Below, piece by piece: positions 1-7,797 of a stretch of DNA of 8,016 nt (the stretch's first letter is position 1; every line of letters begins with the position of its first letter). The stretch is from a virus. Taxonomy: Duplodnaviria; Heunggongvirae; Uroviricota; Caudoviricetes. The notes beneath the pieces are model-generated. The model was not told the DNA's origin. It worked only from the letters and a program-made list of their open reading frames with translations, and did not search any database. Location of the stretch: IMG/VR virus record IMGVR_UViG_2684622582_000005, positions 1 through 8,016 of that record; one strand, 5' to 3'. Made by a program: the position numbers and the translations under genes.

Positions 1-1284
1 CTACTTTTTCGCCTCTGCAACCACTTTGCTACCCACGCCGCGGTTATTGTATTCCCACATGCGGTTGTAGTTAGTGTCATTCAGATTGCGCTGTACTTCG
101 TCGTTATCATCAACGTTGCCAGTATTACCCGCAAACGGACGATTGGAAATCACCGCATCGGCCCACGGTTTCGCCGTGTTAAAACCTTCGTTGATGGCGC
201 TATCACGGATCACTACCTGACCGTTGGTATTGGCATCAACATCCAGCGAGCGGCCCAGTTGCGCCACGCCATCACCGGAAGCATTGAAACGGCTGTTTAC
301 GGCGAGGAAACCGTAGTAAATGTTGGACAGCGTAGCCGGTGCAAACACATACGCTTCTTGCTGGGTACGGGAGTTCACCACGCGGAATTCGGTGTTATCG
401 AACACCACTGCGCCGCGACCAGAAACGATATCCACATCCCCTTCAATATAGCTGTTGGTCACCAGCGTACGCGGCTGACGATTCGTTTCCAGACGGTTCT
501 GCACACCGCTGTTGGTGACAAAGAAGGTGTTCTGACGACCGAGAATGTTGACGTTATTGATCTGCACTTTGTCGCCATCAGTACGCAGTGCCACCGCCGG
601 ATGGTTACCCGCATCTACGCTATCGCCCAGCGTGTTTTCGATGGTCAGGTTTTGCAGTTGCAGGCCATTGTTTTGTGACCAGAAGACCGCAGAGCAGAGA
701 ACACCGATACTGTCGCTGCGTTTACTCTGGCAGCTATCGTACATATACCACGCCGGTTTACCTGGCATATATTTGCCGCGCGGGTTGACGTCGTGACGCC
801 AGTCGGCAGGGCTCATGCCACCATCAAGGGAAAGCCCAATCTTCACATCAATCGGTTTTTCACCTGTACCGTATAGAGTAATTCCACCCGGAGCGGCAGG
901 GACATACACCGTTCCCTGATACTCACCAGGCATCACGGCAATATACTGGCGCTTGTTGGTACGCTTGATAATTGCCGCATCTACCGCCGCCTGAATCGTG
1001 GTATGCGTTACACCTTGAGTACCCGCCGGGCCGACAACAAAGTCAGGTTGCGCAGGCAGGGTAATCGGGGAAGGATTCCACGCTGCCGCACCTGGTGTCA
1101 GGGATGCAAAATAGTGTTGAGCATCGAAATTCTGCGCTTCTTTTGCCGACAGAATCGGGCGCGAAGAGGTACCAGGCGCGGTTTGATCAGAAGGACGTTG
1201 ATCGGGCGGTGTTGAGCTACAGGCGGTCAGCGTCACGCCAAAAGCCAATGCCAGCGCCAGACGGGAAACTGAAAATGTGTTCAC
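1..1284 (-). CDS. ybhC: YbhC, putative outer-membrane lipoprotein (pectinesterase-like / acyl-CoA thioesterase family); host gene flanking attB-lambda
   Basis: 427-aa ORF spanning 1..1284 on the minus strand. N-terminus MNTFSVSRLALALAFGVTLTAC has a signal peptide and lipobox (LTAC). Length and sequence match my memory of E. coli YbhC, the gene on the gal side of attB-lambda. Start ATG at 1284, stop at 1..3. Confidence 0.9.
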   Translation of the reverse strand: MNTFSVSRLALALAFGVTLTACSSTPPDQRPSDQTAPGTSSRPILSAKEAQNFDAQHYFASLTPGAAAWNPSPITLPAQPDFVVGPAGTQGVTHTTIQAAVDAAIIKRTNKRQYIAVMPGEYQGTVYVPAAPGGITLYGTGEKPIDVKIGLSLDGGMSPADWRHDVNPRGKYMPGKPAWYMYDSCQSKRSDSIGVLCSAVFWSQNNGLQLQNLTIENTLGDSVDAGNHPAVALRTDGDKVQINNVNILGRQNTFFVTNSGVQNRLETNRQPRTLVTNSYIEGDVDIVSGRGAVVFDNTEFRVVNSRTQQEAYVFAPATLSNIYYGFLAVNSRFNASGDGVAQLGRSLDVDANTNGQVVIRDSAINEGFNTAKPWADAVISNRPFAGNTGNVDDNDEVQRNLNDTNYNRMWEYNNRGVGSKVVAEAKK

Positions 1285-1315: not shown

Positions 1316-1421
1316 AATCCGTTGAAGCCTGCTTTTTTATACTAAGTTGGCATTATAAAAAAGCATTGCTTATCAATTTGTTGCAACGAACAGGTCACTA
1401 TTAGTCAAAATAAAATCATTA
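1316..1421. other. attL: attL (B-O-P') of lambda-type site-specific integration; 15-bp core at 1331..1345
   Basis: Host-side B arm TTGAAGCCT, then core GCTTTTTTATACTAA (1331..1345), then P'-arm sequence GTTGGCATTATAAAAAAGCATTGCTTATCAATTTGTTGCAACGAACAGGTCACTAT... as in lambda attP, running directly into the int stop codon. Confidence 0.88.
1371..1421. promoter_or_regulatory. P'-arm protein-binding sites: IHF H' site (TATCAATTTGTTG, 1371..1383) and three tandem Int arm-type sites (about 1391..1421)
   Basis: TATCAATTTGTTG fits the IHF consensus WATCAANNNNTTR. CAGGTCACTAT / TAGTCAAAAT / AAATCATTAT resemble the Int arm-type consensus (C/A)AGTCACTAT and sit where P'1-P'3 lie in lambda. Confidence 0.7.
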
Positions 1422-2345
1422 TTTGATTTCAATTTTGTCCCACTCCCTGCCTCTGTCATCACGATACTGTGATGCCATGGTGTCCGACTTATGCCCGAGA
1501 AGATGTTGAGCAAACTTATCGCTTATCTGCTTCTCATAGAGTCTTGCAGACAAACTGCGCAACTCGTGAAAGGTAGGCGGATCCCCTTCGAAGGAAAGAC
1601 CTGATGCTTTTCGTGCGCGCATAAAATACTTTACACCTGTTTTGCTTTGCTCGACATAAAGATATCCATCTACGATATCAGACCACTTCATTTCGCATAA
1701 ATCACCAACTCGCTGCCCGGTAACAACAGCCAGTTCCATTGCAAGTCTGAGCCAACATGGTGATGATTCTGCTGCTTGATAAATTTTCAGGTATTCGTCA
1801 GCCGTAAGTCTTGATCTCCTTACCTCTGATTTTGCAGCGCGAGTGGCAGCGACCGGGTTTATTGTTATATGGCCTTCAGCTATTGCCTCTCGGAATGCAT
1901 CGCTCAGTGTTGATCTGATTAACTTGGCTGACGCCGCTTTGCCCTCGTCTATGTATCCATTGAGCATTGCCGCAATTTCTTTTGTGGTGATGTCTTCAAG
2001 TGGAGCATCAGGCAGCCCCCTCCTTATTGCTTTAATTTTGCTCATGTAATTTATGAGTGTCTTCTGCTTGATTCCTCTGCTGGCGAGGATTTTTTCGTAG
2101 CGATCAAGCCATGAATGTAACGTAACAGAATTATCACTGTTGATTCTCGCTGTCAGAGGCTTGTGTTTGTGTCCTGAAAATAACTCAATGTTGGCCTGTA
2201 TTGCTTCAGTGATTGCTATCCTCCTGTCTCGGCCTAAACCAAACTCTTTACCCGTCCTTGGGTCCCTGTAGCAGTAATATCCATTGTTTCTTATATAAAG
2301 GTTAGGGGGTAAATCCCGGCGCTCATGACTTCGCCTTCTTCCCAT
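1419..2345 (-). CDS. int: Lambda-type tyrosine integrase Int with an in-frame 48-residue internal deletion (308 aa instead of 356 aa); probably inactive
   Basis: N-terminus MGRRRSHERRDLPPNLYIRNNGYYCYRDPRTGKEFGLGRD and C-terminus ...LLGHKSDTMASQYRDDRGREWDKIEIK match lambda Int. The residue count places R212 and K235 at their lambda positions and maps H260/R263/H285/Y294 onto lambda H308/R311/H333/Y342, which fits a loss of residues 240-287. The lambda BamHI site (GGATCC, about 1580) is retained. Confidence 0.88.
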   Translation of the reverse strand: MGRRRSHERRDLPPNLYIRNNGYYCYRDPRTGKEFGLGRDRRIAITEAIQANIELFSGHKHKPLTARINSDNSVTLHSWLDRYEKILASRGIKQKTLINYMSKIKAIRRGLPDAPLEDITTKEIAAMLNGYIDEGKAASAKLIRSTLSDAFREAIAEGHITINPVAATRAAKSEVRRSRLTADEYLKIYQAAESSPCWLRLAMELAVVTGQRVGDLCEMKWSDIVDGYLYVEQSKTGVKYFMRARKASGLSFEGDPPTFHELRSLSARLYEKQISDKFAQHLLGHKSDTMASQYRDDRGREWDKIEIK

Positions 2346-2541
2346 TTCTGATCCTCTTCAAAAGGCTACCTGTTACTGGTCGATTTAAGTCAACCTTTAC
2401 CGCTGATTCGTGGAACAGATACTCTCTTCCATCCTTAACTGGAGGAGGGAATATCCTGCATTCGCGCACCCATCGACGAACTGTTTCAAGGCTTCTTGGG
2501 CGTCGCTGGCGAGCGTTCCACTCCTGAAGTGTCAAGTACAT
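2323..2541 (-). CDS. xis: Excisionase Xis (72 aa)
   Basis: MYLTLQEWNARQRRPRSLETVRRWVRECRIFPPPVKDGREYLFHESAVKVDLNRPVTGSLLKRIRNGKKAKS matches lambda Xis. ATG at 2541; the 3' end overlaps the int start by 23 nt. The 102-aa ORF in the track is an upstream extension in the same frame. Confidence 0.92.
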   Translation of the reverse strand: MYLTLQEWNARQRRPRSLETVRRWVRECRIFPPPVKDGREYLFHESAVKVDLNRPVTGSLLKRIRNGKKAKS

Positions 2542-2562
2542 CGCAAAGTCTCCGCAATTACA

Positions 2563-2589
2563 CGCAAGAAAAAGCCGCATTGATGCGGC
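2563..2589 (-). terminator. Predicted rho-independent terminator (minus strand) between the 114-aa ORF and xis
   Basis: Read on the minus strand: GCCGCATCAATGCGGC (perfect 6-bp stem, 4-nt loop) followed by TTTTTCTTG. Confidence 0.6.
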
Positions 2590-2658
2590 GATGGTAGGTC
2601 TGGATATCATTGAGCAATGAACAGGCCTCATCGAGTGTGAGGCGGTGTTATTTCATGG

Positions 2659-3380: not shown

Positions 3381-4169
3381 TCAAAGGGGAGGTTCTGGTA
3401 GTTGCATCCAGTCGGTTACATTGCGACTCTGTGTTTCGAAAAATTCATCACCATTGCGGACAATATCGAAAAACTCTCCGTCTCGATATTGCGCATAAAG
3501 AACGAATGCGCCATCACATAAAATAATTACGTGCTGACCATCATCTGGCATTCGCTCACTACAGCTTATCCAACCATCCGGAGTTACCGGATAGTTGCCC
3601 GATAGTGCATTCTGCTCCAGTGATGCTTTTACAAAACACGCGGCCTGAACTATTACGTCATGAATCCAGCGCAAATCAGCATCGCGATCTTTCTTTTTCA
3701 TTTTTTCGCCACTTAAAGCCTGGCTTATGTGGCTGCGTACCAGGTCTTCATGTAACGCCTTCGCATCCTCAATGGTGAAACCACCAGGCAGGCGAGCCGG
3801 GGTTACATGAGGGTTGCCTTCCCCCTGACTCTGAAGCATGGTGGCGCGGCAGGCGTTCCAGCCTTCATCAAAACCGACTATGCCATTATTTAAAGACGGA
3901 CGAGCATCTGGCACCACCAGTACTGGCTTGGCTATATATAGCGGCTGAACATACCAACCCTTTGATAACCAACTGTCAGCAATGTTTTTACTCCTCGTTA
4001 TTGCCGGAATACCTAAGCCATTGTCTGAATGAAGCCACGCCACCGGCTCTGCTTCCAGCGATGCCAGAGCAATTTCATAAGCCCGACGCTCAATATTGTC
4101 TCGGACGTCCAGGCTGCCTATGCGCTCTTTGATTTCTTTAATCAGTTCTTTGTCGGTGAAAGTGGTCAT
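3381..4169 (-). CDS. Ea22-like protein with a DUF551-like C-terminal region (262 aa)
   Basis: Likely start is ATG at 4169 (MTTFTDKELIKEIK...), with RBS AAGGAGAG and stop-start coupling (TGAtATG) to the upstream ORF. The C-terminus (...WISCSERMPDDGQHVIILCDG...VTDWMQLPEPPL) resembles the W...PEPP ending I associate with DUF551 prophage proteins. The track's 292-aa version extends upstream across the neighbouring ORF. Confidence 0.65.
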   Translation of the reverse strand: MTTFTDKELIKEIKERIGSLDVRDNIERRAYEIALASLEAEPVAWLHSDNGLGIPAITRSKNIADSWLSKGWYVQPLYIAKPVLVVPDARPSLNNGIVGFDEGWNACRATMLQSQGEGNPHVTPARLPGGFTIEDAKALHEDLVRSHISQALSGEKMKKKDRDADLRWIHDVIVQAACFVKASLEQNALSGNYPVTPDGWISCSERMPDDGQHVIILCDGAFVLYAQYRDGEFFDIVRNGDEFFETQSRNVTDWMQLPEPPL

Positions 4170-4182
4170 ATCACTCTCCTTT
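4167..4182. repeat. 16-nt junction repeat CATATCACTCTCCTTT (copy 1) at the Ea22-like stop / downstream-gene start
   Basis: Identical 16-mer at 4167..4182 and 4652..4667. On the minus strand it reads AAAGGAGAGTGATATG, i.e. RBS plus TGA stop plus ATG start. A degenerate third copy (CATATCACTACCTCC) lies at 3282..3296. Confidence 0.85.
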
Positions 4183-4446
4183 TCCCTGAAGCATAGCCGC
4201 GCGGCAGGCATTCCAGCCTGTAGTGTAATATTGCGCATCATGCCAGCTCGTTTGTACATTTGAGTACGCTTTTTCCTCTGTCATCGGCTCGGGTATTGAT
4301 GGCGCTTGCTTTGCTTCCAGTGATGCCAGTGCAATCCGTGCCAGTTCTTCCGCTTCTTCTGCTGGCAGTACAACGTTGCTACCCGGTCCGTATGTTTCTC
4401 GCCACTGCTTGATTGTCAGCAGTCGATCTTTGGTAATAGTGGTCAT
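4171..4446 (-). CDS. Hypothetical protein (91 aa); truncated paralog of the N-terminal module of the 262-aa Ea22-like protein
   Basis: MTTITKDRL... parallels MTTFTDKEL...; shares the IALASLEA and GWNACRA(A/T)MLQ segments with the 262-aa protein. Ends ...KGE with TGA one nt before the next ATG. Confidence 0.5.
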   Translation of the reverse strand: MTTITKDRLLTIKQWRETYGPGSNVVLPAEEAEELARIALASLEAKQAPSIPEPMTEEKAYSNVQTSWHDAQYYTTGWNACRAAMLQGKGE

Positions 4447-4456
4447 TTGTTATGCC

Positions 4457-4654
4457 TCAATACACAAAATCTGTTTTAAATTCATGGTTACATTCTGGAC
4501 AGCATGTTTCGTAACCTTTTATTTCTTCACATGCCTGTTTTGCTCCAGAAAATTCCCAGAAATCAGCATCGCAAAGCAGATCGAAATTGTGGCCGCATTT
4601 TGGGCATTCAGTATCAAGTGATAAACTCCAGTAAGCAGGTGTGTTTTTGTCCAT
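4457..4654 (-). CDS. Small zinc-ribbon protein (65 aa), CPKCG...CCPEC; possible Ea8.5-like
   Basis: ATG at 4654 preceded by AAGGAGAG; product MDKNTPAYWSLSLDTECPKCGHNFDLLCDADFWEFSGAKQACEEIKGYETCCPECNHEFKTDFVY. It follows an Ea22-like gene with the TGAtATG junction, the position ea8.5 occupies after ea22 in lambda. Confidence 0.55.
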   Translation of the reverse strand: MDKNTPAYWSLSLDTECPKCGHNFDLLCDADFWEFSGAKQACEEIKGYETCCPECNHEFKTDFVY

Positions 4655-4667
4655 ATCACTCTCCTTT
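4652..4667. repeat. 16-nt junction repeat CATATCACTCTCCTTT (copy 2)
   Basis: See copy 1; exact match read directly from the sequence. Confidence 0.85.
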
Positions 4668-5081
4668 GATGCGAATGCCTGCGGCGCGTGGCACATTAAC
4701 TTCCACGATGCGCACTGTTGGTTTGTACATCTCAATCGCTGTCAGCCAGTCAGCTCCTGTCATGCGCTTTTCCGCATCGCCATTAGTCCACTGAACCGGT
4801 ACACCAATAGCCTTCATCGCGATTTCTATTTCCCCGGCAATGGCGCTTTTTCCGCAACCAGTAAAACCAGAAACAACGACAAGAACTTCACCTTTGGCTG
4901 GTTTTATTTCCCGAGCTTCCAGTTCTGCAATGCGCTTTTTGTCTGCTTCCCGTTCATCCAGCAGTGCCAGCACAATCGATGGTGTTACCAGCTCATGGAA
5001 AAGGTCCGCGTCAAATCCCCAGTTGTCATGCATTGCCTGCTCTGCCGCTTCACGCAGTGCCTGAGAGTTAATTTCGCTCAC
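4656..5081 (-). CDS. Ea22-like protein (141 aa) with an internal Walker-A-like motif (GFTGCGKS)
   Basis: GTG start at 5081 overlapping the orf73 stop (GTGA), preceded by AGAGAGG. The N-terminus MSEINSQALREAAEQAMHD... and the ...IRIKGE C-terminus resemble the conserved ends of the ead/Ea22-like family as I recall them. The central segment VLVVVSGFTGCGKSAIAGE (nt 4845..4868 encode GFTGCGKS) fits GxxxxGK[ST]. Confidence 0.6.
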   Translation of the reverse strand: MSEINSQALREAAEQAMHDNWGFDADLFHELVTPSIVLALLDEREADKKRIAELEAREIKPAKGEVLVVVSGFTGCGKSAIAGEIEIAMKAIGVPVQWTNGDAEKRMTGADWLTAIEMYKPTVRIVEVNVPRAAGIRIKGE

Positions 5082-5299
5082 TTCGAACCTCTCTGTTTAC
5101 TGATAAGCTCCAGATCCTCCTGGCAACTTGCACAAGTCCGACAACCCTGAACGATCAGGCGTCTTCGTTCATCTATCGGATCGCCACACTCACAACAATG
5201 AGTGGCAGATACAGCCTGGTGGTTCAGACGACGCATTTTTATTGCTGTATTGCGCTGTAATTCTTCGATTTCTGATGCTGAATCAATGATGTCTGCCAT
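5078..5299 (-). CDS. TraR/DksA-family C4 zinc-finger protein (73 aa), orf73-like
   Basis: MADIIDSASEIEELQRNTAIKMRRLNHQAVSATHCCECGDPIDERRRLIVQGCRTCASCQEDLE... has two CxxC pairs about 17 residues apart, the same length as F-plasmid TraR (73 aa), and sits at the orf73 position of lambdoid exo-xis regions. Confidence 0.75.
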   Translation of the reverse strand: MADIIDSASEIEELQRNTAIKMRRLNHQAVSATHCCECGDPIDERRRLIVQGCRTCASCQEDLELISKQRGSK

Positions 5300-5881: not shown

Positions 5882-6036
5882 ACCGCCTCCCGTTTATTAT
5901 TTATCTTCTCAGCCAGCCGCTGTGCTTTCAGTGGATTTCTGATAACAGAAAGGCCGGGAAATACCCAGCCTCGCTTTGTAACGGAGTAGACGAAAGTGAT
6001 CGCGCCTACCCGGATATTATCGTGAGGATGCGTCAT
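5854..6036 (-). CDS. orf60a: Orf60a (60 aa), exo-xis region protein
   Basis: Start at the ATG overlapping the exo stop (ATGA at 6033..6036) gives the 60-aa product [40 protein letters not shown]... The track's 62-aa version starts 2 codons upstream. Confidence 0.8.
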
Positions 6037-6713
6037 CGCCATTGCTCCCCAAATACAAAACCAATTTCAGCCAGTGCCTCGTCCATTTTTTCGATGAACT
6101 CCGGCACCATCTCGTCAAAACTCGCTATGTACTTTTCATCCCGCTCAACCACGACATAATGCAGGCCTTCACGCTTCATACGCGGGTCATAGTTGGCAAA
6201 GTACCAGGCATCTTTTCGCGTCACCCACATGCTGTACTGCACCTGGGCCATGTAAGCCGACTTTATGGCCTCGAAACCACCGAGCCTGAACTTCATGAAA
6301 TCCCGGGAGGTAAACGGGCATTTCAGCTCAAGGCCGTTGCCGTCACTGCATAAACCATCGGGAGAGCAGGCGGTGCGCATACTTTCGTCGCGATAGATGA
6401 TCGGGGATTCAGTAACATTCACGCCGGAAGTGAATTCAAACAGGGTTCTGGCGTCGTTCTCATACTGTTTTCCCCACGCCAGCGCCTTAGCATTAACTTC
6501 CGGAGCCACACCGGTGCAAACCTCAGCCAGCAGGGTGTGGAAGTAGGACATTTTCATGTCAGGCCACTTCTTTCCTGAGCGGGGCTTTGCTATCACGTTG
6601 TGAACTTCTGAAGCGGTGATGACGCCGAGCCGTAATTTGTGCCATGCATCATCCCCCTGTTCGACAGCTCTCACGTCGATCCCGGTACGCTGCAGGATAA
6701 TGTCCGGTGTCAT
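6033..6713 (-). CDS. exo: Lambda exonuclease (Red-alpha), 226 aa
   Basis: [65 protein letters not shown]... matches lambda Exo over its full length. Start overlaps the bet stop (ATGA). Confidence 0.95.
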
Positions 6714-7495
6714 GCTGCCACCTTCTGCTCAGTGGCTTTCTGTTTCAGGAATCCAAGAGCTTTCACTGCTTCGGCCTGTGTCAGTTCTGACGATGCGCGA
6801 ATGTCGCGGCGAAATATCTGGGAACAGAGCGGCAATAAGTCGTCATCCCATGTTTTATCCAGGGCGATTAGCAGAGTGTTAATCTCCTGCATGGTTTCAT
6901 CGTTAACCGGAGTGATGTCGCGTTCCGGCTGACGTTCTACAGTGTATGCGGTATTTTCGACAATGCGCTCGGCTTCATCCTTGTCATAGATACCAGCAAA
7001 TCCGAAGGCCAGACGGGCACACTGAATCATGGCTTTATGACGTAACATCCGTTTGGGATGCGACTGCCACGGCCCCGTGATTTCTCTGCCTTCGCGGGTT
7101 TTGAATGGTTCGCGGCGGCATTCATCCATCCACTCGGTAACGCAGATCGGATGATTACGGTCCTTGCGGTAAATCCGGCATGTGCAGGATTCATTGTCCT
7201 GCTCAAAGTCCATGCCATCAAACTGCTGGTTTTCATTGATGATACGGGACCAGCCATCAACGCCCACCACCGGAACGATGCCGTTCTGCTTATCAGGGAA
7301 GGCGTAAATTTCTTTCGTCCACGGATTAAGGCCGTACTGGTTGGCGACGATCAACAATGCGATGAACTGCGCATCGCTGGCATCACCTTTAAATGCCGTC
7401 TGGCGAAGAGTGGTGATCAGTTCCTGTGGGTCGACAGAATCCATGCCGACACGTTCAGCCAGCTTCCCTGCCAGCGTTGCGAGTGCTGTACTCAT
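6710..7495 (-). CDS. bet: Bet (Red-beta) single-strand annealing protein, 261 aa
   Basis: [69 protein letters not shown]... matches lambda Bet over its full length. Confidence 0.95.
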
Positions 7496-7500
7496 CCGTT

Positions 7501-7797
7501 TTATACCTCTGAATCAATATCAAACTGGTGGTGAGCAATGGTTTCAACCATGTACCGGATGTGTTCTGCCATGCGCTCCTGAAACTCAACATCGTCATCA
7601 AACGCACGGGTAATGGCTTTTTTGCTGGCCCCGTGGCGTTGCAAATGATCGATGCATAGCGATTCAAACAGGTGCTGGGGCAGGCCTTTTTCCATGTCGT
7701 CTGCCAGTTCTGCCTCTTTCTCTTCACGGGCGATCTGCTGGTAGTGACGCGCCCAGCTCTGAGCCTCAAGACGATCCTGAATGTAATAAGCGTTCAT
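7501..7797 (-). CDS. gam: Gam (GamS form, 98 aa), RecBCD inhibitor
   Basis: [60 protein letters not shown]... matches lambda Gam from its internal Met. An in-frame TAA 10 codons upstream stops the ORF from extending to the 138-aa long form. Confidence 0.9.

Follow-up and report, generated by a model that had tools for sequence, protein, structure and literature searches.

Can a Walker A motif belong to a working site in a protein that continues for only some sixty residues beyond it? This question is raised by an Ea22-like gene (4656..5081, minus strand; 141 amino acids plus stop) carried in the left-hand end of a lambda-like prophage that has integrated next to ybhC, and contained in the first 8,016 nucleotides of the viral record IMGVR_UViG_2684622582_000005 (Caudoviricetes), the whole of which stretch was analysed and is referred to here as the window. 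P-loop nucleoside triphosphatases (NTPases) are usually of ~160 amino acids or more, and an earlier note, made from the sequence alone, had pointed to the motif GFTGCGKS in this much smaller protein, offering three readings: a captured fragment of an NTPase or kinase, a minimal nucleotide-binding module, or a chance match. The second, in which binding stays conditional, proves the best supported. The region around the motif is very likely a genuine, conserved P-loop-type domain, and GFTGCGKS is probably a functioning Walker A in a mini P-loop domain that is autonomous, comprises ~68 amino acids, would bind Mg-nucleotide or phosphate and is probably oligomeric.

Retention of the Walker A motif

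Translation of 4845..4868 on the minus strand, together with the Pfam Ead_Ea22 assignment, bears out the presence of GFTGCGKS (residues 72–79) in a 141-residue Ea22-like protein. The hydrophobic segment EVLVVVS precedes the motif, K78 is its Walker A lysine, and 62 residues follow S79, in agreement with the previous estimate of about 60. The window, read in all six frames, has no instance of [GA]xxxxGK[ST] other than GFTGCGKS, and GxxxxGK[ST] arises in 0.4% of shuffles of the 141-residue protein; taken alone, the motif is weak evidence that does no more than suggest a P-loop. Close homologues retain it in 119 of 120 cases, cluster representatives in 140 of 143, and a more distant branch of mostly free-standing proteins in 119 of 120, so that the check on conservation that had been proposed came out in its favour in all three sets, and it is also present in each of seven phage homologues at 35–60% identity.

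The module is under strong purifying selection, with a ratio of nonsynonymous to synonymous substitution rates (dN/dS) of 0.02–0.05 between the window and three enterobacterial loci. Taken with the retention of Walker A, this value argues, to the point of exclusion, against both a decaying fragment and a chance motif. A chance occurrence in a fold other than a P-loop could draw on the shuffle frequency given above and on the outcome of Foldseek searches with the predicted module structure, which returned nothing significant, and hence no P-loop match, from PDB and BFVD; set against motif retention across homologues and the low dN/dS, it is extremely improbable.

An autonomous and widespread module

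The mini P-loop module comprises residues 64–131 (GEVLVVVSG...VRIVEVNVP; 4689..4892, minus strand), ~68 amino acids that begin and end at the same points in 261 homologues, the flanks of which are unrelated. A search with residues 58–141 against 1.84 billion cluster representatives (clusters at 50% identity) gave 445 representatives with E ≤ 0.001, 350 of them with E ≤ 1e-10, and the matches almost always cover query positions ~3–77. Of the 261 proteins retrieved, which range from 82 to 623 amino acids, 244 carry the module at the C-terminus, 12 at the N-terminus and five internally, and the sequence outside it is unrelated and highly mosaic. In ten long mosaic relatives and six distant ones from phages, Pfam detected no complete NTPase domain and, as partners of the module, DUF4406 and Ead_Ea22 only.

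A second search, seeded with a Methylobacterium homologue from a genome scan, gave 120 hits, of which 81 are whole proteins of 57–90 amino acids; a typical free-standing member reads MSEITVTVSGPVGCGKSAIAGEIEIA...SEKxMTGADW..YLEMYKPSVVIVE. Because free-standing proteins of 70–90 amino acids exist, the ~68-residue module is, judged by sequence, autonomous, and it is on this autonomy that the case for a minimal module draws. The protein in the window is indeed far too short for a canonical NTPase domain, as had been said of it, yet this size is a property of the whole family and not the truncation of one gene.

Homologues at 35–43% identity are found in Ralstonia and Burkholderia jumbo phages (RSL2 ORF127 and SURPRISE13_138), in the jumbo phage record KpHz_2, which is named as a Serratia phage and has Klebsiella pneumoniae as its listed host, and in Stenotrophomonas and Xanthomonas phages. 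A closer homologue, with 61% identity, is gp37 of Burkholderia phage BcepC6B; the match to Klebsiella phage Eowyn is partial only (44% over 59% of the query). A word-indexed homologue search with the module of Stenotrophomonas phage StM171 as query returned no matches. Hosts of the family belong to the Gamma-, Beta- and Alphaproteobacteria. In a Stenotrophomonas prophage, a Rhizobium chromosome and a metagenomic contig, the module gene lies among small uncharacterised genes beside a phage integrase, and this integrase-adjacent run of early accessory genes is the same niche that the exo-xis region occupies in lambda, as also seen in Escherichia.

Some members bear automatic NCBI and JGI names such as ‘ATP-binding protein’ and ‘adenylylsulfate kinase-like enzyme’. 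No curated model for the module was found among the Pfam, NCBIfam and PADLOC families, PADLOC gave no defence-system match, and the matching PHROG families are all of unknown function. The literature searched contained neither natural mini P-loop proteins nor a P-loop variant of Ea22, the one paper in which both terms occur using them for different genes.

This distribution also bears on the idea of a decaying remnant, in which a truncated, non-functional piece of a kinase gene has been left behind by recombination in the exo-xis region. Such an origin would suit the highly mosaic nature of the region, the 48-residue deletion in the prophage integrase and a likeness to kinases that is limited to their N-terminal part. 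It is nevertheless very unlikely in view of the dN/dS already given, the identical boundaries in hundreds of clusters from three proteobacterial classes, and the existence of intact free-standing genes, with no full-length parent seen among the homologues.

Outside the enterobacteria, many module proteins consist of unrelated segments joined by recurring Ala/Pro-rich linkers (...ARAALAATPA..., ...AAPVVLPEPVAW...), one such protein including a DUF4406 domain, and a similar EPVAW junction is present in the DUF551 protein of the window; on sequence grounds, these linkers may be recombination joints for domain shuffling. In a Stenotrophomonas maltophilia prophage (locus L001, 5622..9362), the module forms the N-terminus of a 453-residue protein, the gene for which stands directly downstream of a diversity-generating-retroelement-like set (Lcl_C-domain gene, bAvd and reverse transcriptase) and upstream of a DNA methylase. 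In Methylobacterium variabile (locus L024, 2361..3264), a free-standing module gene of 84 amino acids overlaps the stop of an upstream 218-residue gene, whose product has, by eye only, the look of an ASCH domain.

Predicted fold and invariant residues

Two AlphaFold models were considered. That of the full-length protein is poor (predicted local distance difference test score, pLDDT, 57.7) and was used for secondary-structure elements only; within the module it has strand 66–71, helix 77–91, helix 111–119 and strand 122–127. The model of the module alone, based on 48 diverse sequences, reached a pLDDT of 83.4 and a predicted template modelling score (pTM) of 0.70, with helices at protein residues 78–91, 102–106 and 109–119. 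Structure prediction, which had been suggested as a check on P-loop geometry, thus sets Walker A between strand 66–71 and helix 77–91 in the full-length model, low as its overall pLDDT is, and the same helix recurs in the module-only model.

Together with sequence alignments, these models give a predicted order of beta1, P-loop, alpha1, beta2, alpha2 and beta3. Strand beta1 (EVLVVVS; 4869..4889, minus strand) is fully hydrophobic and runs into the P-loop, with V66, V68 and V70 invariant among close homologues. Helix alpha1 (residues 78–91, KSAIAGEIEIAMKA; 4809..4850, minus strand), called as helix in both models, carries the family signature AGEIEI and aligns with STVAGALEEALHKL of CysC. Strand beta2 (VPVQW, residues 94–98) and the loop TNGDAE that follows it (together 4770..4802, minus strand) were placed by alignment, neither model calling this strand; the N-G-D of the loop lies in the DxD position of adenylylsulfate (APS) and shikimate kinases, and the last codon of the loop, 4770–4772, encodes the invariant E104. 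Helix alpha2 (GADWLTAIEMY, residues 109–119) and strand beta3 (VRIVEVN, residues 123–129) occupy 4695..4757 on the minus strand.

In the standard Walker B arrangement, a hydrophobic strand beside beta1 has Asp or Glu at its end. The predicted strand VRIVE finishes with the invariant E127, which makes this glutamate a candidate Walker-B-like residue in the predicted fold. The earlier contention that the protein leaves no room for a Walker B motif is therefore not upheld, the 50 residues past the P-loop being enough for predicted alpha1, beta2, alpha2 and beta3.

The widest alignment, of 15 sequences down to ~35% identity and including proteins of jumbo phages and Stenotrophomonas phages, has seven invariant residues: G72, G77, K78, S79, G93, E104 and E127. 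Nearly invariant are V70, G75, A80, W98, E117, P121 and N129. Distant members no longer have the AGEIEI and ADW residues that mark the main branch. The residues still conserved at ~35% identity appear to be largely those expected for the binding of phosphate and Mg2+.

Likeness to small-molecule kinases

The module profile was compared by hhalign, pairwise, with six hand-picked P-loop proteins of E. coli. Probabilities were 95.9–96.0% for CysC (35% identity between module residues 66–105 and CysC 29–68, over 34–40 columns), 83–88% for GntK and 78–82% for AroK, the last including an EKRxTGAD match. MinD (9–15%), Adk (1–5%) and BioD (0.3–1%) all lie at 15% or less, and were rejected as closest relatives.

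Searches of family models gave sub-threshold matches to APS kinase, gluconokinase, MinD/Mrp, UvrA and others, which are confined to the strand–P-loop–helix segment; PF01583 (APS kinase) scored 14.8 bits, below its cut-off of 21.1, and NCBIfam APS-kinase models scored 13–16 bits, below cut-offs of 139–244. Single-sequence and profile searches of PDB sequences yielded sub-threshold matches of the P-loop segment only. Overall, the module appears to resemble the N-terminal half of the DxD group of small-molecule kinases, acting on APS, gluconate and shikimate. Past residue 131 there is a tail of only ~10 residues, and no homologue runs on into a kinase domain.

The proposal of a captured NTPase or kinase fragment can be kept in a deep evolutionary sense only, in that the first 40 residues are like APS, gluconate and shikimate kinases. 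The family is old, widespread and selected, there has been no capture by the protein of the window, and full-length NTPases, which it had been thought worth seeking among homologues elsewhere, were absent from those looked at.

The C-terminal slot of Ea22

Ea22 is an early protein of lambda that favours lysogeny by an unknown route. Its architecture comprises an N-terminal region, a coiled coil, a variable C-terminal domain and a K/R-G-E end (PMC7093339, PMC10834534), and all of the corresponding parts are found in the protein of the window: the N-terminal region, a helix at 34–56, a C-terminal slot and a KGE end, in a gene at the exo-xis position. The N-terminal region (residues 1–57; 4911..5081, minus strand) is defined by a match to Pfam Ead_Ea22 (PF13935) over residues 2–57 (48.5 bits against a cut-off of 27, E = 1.7e-12) and by an identity to lambda Ea22 of 86% over residues 1–51. 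AlphaFold predicts helices at 6–18 and 34–56, the latter (LALLDEREADKKRIAELEA) being the short counterpart of the Ea22 coiled coil. At the C-terminus is the K-G-E tail (4659..4667, minus strand) that is common to Ea22 proteins (PMC7093339). The module itself fills the slot of the C-terminal domain, with only the K-G-E tail beyond it, and does not lie in a variable middle of Ea22, where the motif had previously been placed. Correspondence of the module to the C-terminal domain of lambda Ea22 was considered and rejected, the alignment with lambda Ea22 ending at residue 51.

Full-length Ea22 proteins are tetrameric and their C-terminal domains dimeric; these domains are interchangeable and thought to touch unknown host proteins (PMC7093339, PMC10834534). 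The words ‘ATP’ and ‘kinase’ are absent from both of these papers, and PMC7093339 is also without ‘Walker’ or ‘nucleotide-binding’.

Such contacts with host proteins lend some appeal to the idea that the module is a protein-binding mimic: shaped like the N-terminal half of a P-loop kinase or ATPase, it would dock onto a host protein, for instance a P-loop enzyme whose decoy or dominant-negative partner it would be, and would bind nucleotide incidentally or not at all. The module is without base-binding and lid elements, its conserved surface-type residues in the main branch (AGEIEI, ADW, Y119) are atypical as nucleotide ligands, and its closest sequence match is the N-terminus of a host enzyme, CysC. 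Yet conservation down to 35% identity includes the lysine and serine of Walker A and two acidic residues, and not AGEIEI or ADW, so the binding of a ligand or metal fits better than a single protein interface; moreover, a family spread over Alpha-, Beta- and Gammaproteobacteria and jumbo phages makes a single host target unlikely. A mimic is for these reasons considered unlikely.

A proposed phosphate-binding half-fold

On the reading preferred here, that of a mini P-loop domain with a working Walker A, K78 and S79 would bind the phosphates of a nucleotide or of another phosphate ligand, while E104 and E127 would bind Mg2+ or water of that ligand. That the module binds a phosphate ligand at all seems probable from its conserved residues; that it hydrolyses or transfers phosphate is a good deal less likely. 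The active form would be a dimer or higher oligomer, because a half-fold of three strands, in which beta1 is wholly hydrophobic and elements for base binding and a lid are missing, would leave the site incomplete. In Ea22, where the module would sit in the interchangeable C-terminal slot between a lambda-type N-terminus with a short coiled-coil helix and the K-G-E tail, oligomerisation might be supplied by that helix, since lambda Ea22 is tetrameric and its C-terminal domains dimeric. By analogy with other Ea22 variants, the output would be an early-phase effect on a host process after infection or induction.

Several observations weigh against this reading. DSSP assigns no strands at all in the confident module-only model, one possible cause being that the strands are without partners in a modelled monomer. 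With room for three strands and two helices only, the module does not have the five-stranded sandwich of a canonical P-loop fold. The E-values from hhalign come from pairwise comparisons with targets chosen by hand, and unrelated NTPases often give high probabilities over their P-loop region. Residues at the DxD position vary within the family, from NGD in the window to DGD, DSD, DSE and NEQ elsewhere. Lastly, what precedes the module in many fused forms is an Ala/Pro-rich linker, not a coiled coil.

Designed beta-(P-loop)-alpha prototypes of 40–110 residues, in which the P-loop binds nucleoside triphosphates, polyphosphate and single-stranded DNA, work as oligomers (bioRxiv 10.1101/2020.07.30.228619). 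PDB entries 6c2u (‘phosphate-loop protein’) and 9jix (a de novo designed ATPase) were among the sub-threshold profile matches of the module, with E of 0.4–0.5. These designs invite the alternative that the P-loop grips the backbone or terminal phosphates of single-stranded DNA, RNA or polyphosphate in place of a free nucleotide, for which the location of the gene near exo, bet and gam, in a region of recombination and early genes, would also be apt. The PDB matches are insignificant, the surroundings of the motif are acidic (E84, E86, E104, E117 and E127), a poor setting for nucleic acid, and the two invariant glutamates point to coordination of Mg2+; binding of nucleic acid or polyphosphate instead of a free nucleotide is accordingly regarded as distinctly improbable.

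The fold class of a mini P-loop domain is already known, a natural free-standing unit of ~70 amino acids being outside the usual size range of P-loop NTPases. A broader proposal, which is speculative and rather doubtful, is that these ~70-residue proteins are the smallest natural P-loop units able to bind and perhaps hydrolyse nucleotides, half-folds whose active sites would be completed by self-assembly alone, and which temperate and jumbo phages would use, free or on oligomerising scaffolds of the Ea22 type, to bind or use up a signalling molecule or nucleotide of the host in the lysis-lysogeny decision. As part of the same tentative proposal, such half-folds would be present-day equivalents of the beta-(P-loop)-alpha polypeptides from which NTPases have been suggested to descend. 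If true, a selected, free-standing P-loop unit of ~70 amino acids would show that half of a P-loop fold is functional in vivo, which to our knowledge has so far been argued only from designed prototypes. The analysis also gives sequence-based access, for the first time, to one of the C-terminal domains that are interchangeable in Ea22, and defines an unnamed accessory gene family that lies beside integrases in many temperate phages of Proteobacteria and occurs in jumbo phages as well.

Prophage setting

All of the genes described in the window are on the minus strand. The bacterial gene ybhC (1..1284) is followed by int (1419..2345) and xis (2323..2631), and homologues of exo (6033..6713), bet (6710..7495) and gam (7501..7797) lie at the far end, with a run of small exo-xis-region genes between the xis and exo homologues. 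The integrase (1419..2345) is lambda Int with a clean in-frame deletion of 48 amino acids (lambda residues 240–287), and is identical to lambda Int at 306 of the remaining 308 positions; the deletion suggests, as far as sequence can tell, a crippled integrase and a cryptic, fixed prophage.

Immediately upstream of the Ea22-like gene is a TraR/DksA-like zinc-finger gene (lambda orf73 type, phrog_54; 5078..5299). The GTG start of the Ea22-like gene overlaps the TGA of this neighbour, and by this GTGA overlap the two genes are judged to be translationally coupled. Immediately downstream is a zinc-ribbon gene of 65 amino acids (CxxC...CxxC, phrog_4173, function unknown; 4457..4654). Its open reading frame (ORF) as listed (4457..4735) overlaps the Ea22-like gene by 80 nucleotides; the likely true start is M28, with an ATG at 4654, one nucleotide past the Ea22-like stop.

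The DUF551 protein (3381..4259) has a probable start at M31 (ATG at 4169), directly past the stop of a 91-residue ORF (4171..4446), whose product ends in K-G-E, as Ea22 proteins do. The DUF551 protein and the product of this ORF have three segments in common (MTT.T.K..., ALASLEA and GWNACRA.MLQ), which looks like module shuffling inside the exo-xis region.

Comparison with known systems

Among the closest known systems is Ea22 of lambda, with which the gene of the window shares its position between exo and xis, adjoining an orf73/TraR homologue, and its product a coiled-coil-like helix and the K-G-E tail. The coiled coil of the window protein is much shorter, and its C-terminal domain is unrelated both to the lambda Ea22 C-terminal domain solved by nuclear magnetic resonance and to the described variants of Shiga toxin (Stx) phages.

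With CysC, GntK and AroK, the module has in common a Walker A of the form G[LFP]xGxGKS after a hydrophobic strand, and its alpha1 is similar to that of CysC (SAIAGEIEIAMKAIG against STVAGALEEALHKLG). In the module of the window, as in the DxD-group kinases, the putative beta2 precedes N/D-G-D at the DxD position, which varies across the module family. Only the first 34–46 residues align, however, and the likeness ends past beta2/alpha2. The module is of ~68 amino acids, whereas these kinases have 173–201, and it is without the lid, the substrate-binding region and strands 4 and 5; its family keeps E104, two residues past NGD, and E127, rather than the DxD residues. P-loop NTPases of the SIMIBI class (BioD, GPN-loop GTPase) are also listed among the near known systems, with BioD and MinD at no more than 15% in hhalign.

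The designed P-loop prototypes of the Tawfik laboratory (6c2u) and the de novo ATPase 9jix are similar in their tiny size and in the absence of most of the NTPase fold, while homology to the module is unsupported (E ~0.5). The prototypes bind phosphate ligands only as dimers or oligomers, which is an analogy for, and not evidence of, the same behaviour in the module family. They are laboratory constructs, obtained by ancestral inference or design, whereas the phage module is a natural gene with its own conserved acidic residues and a third strand.
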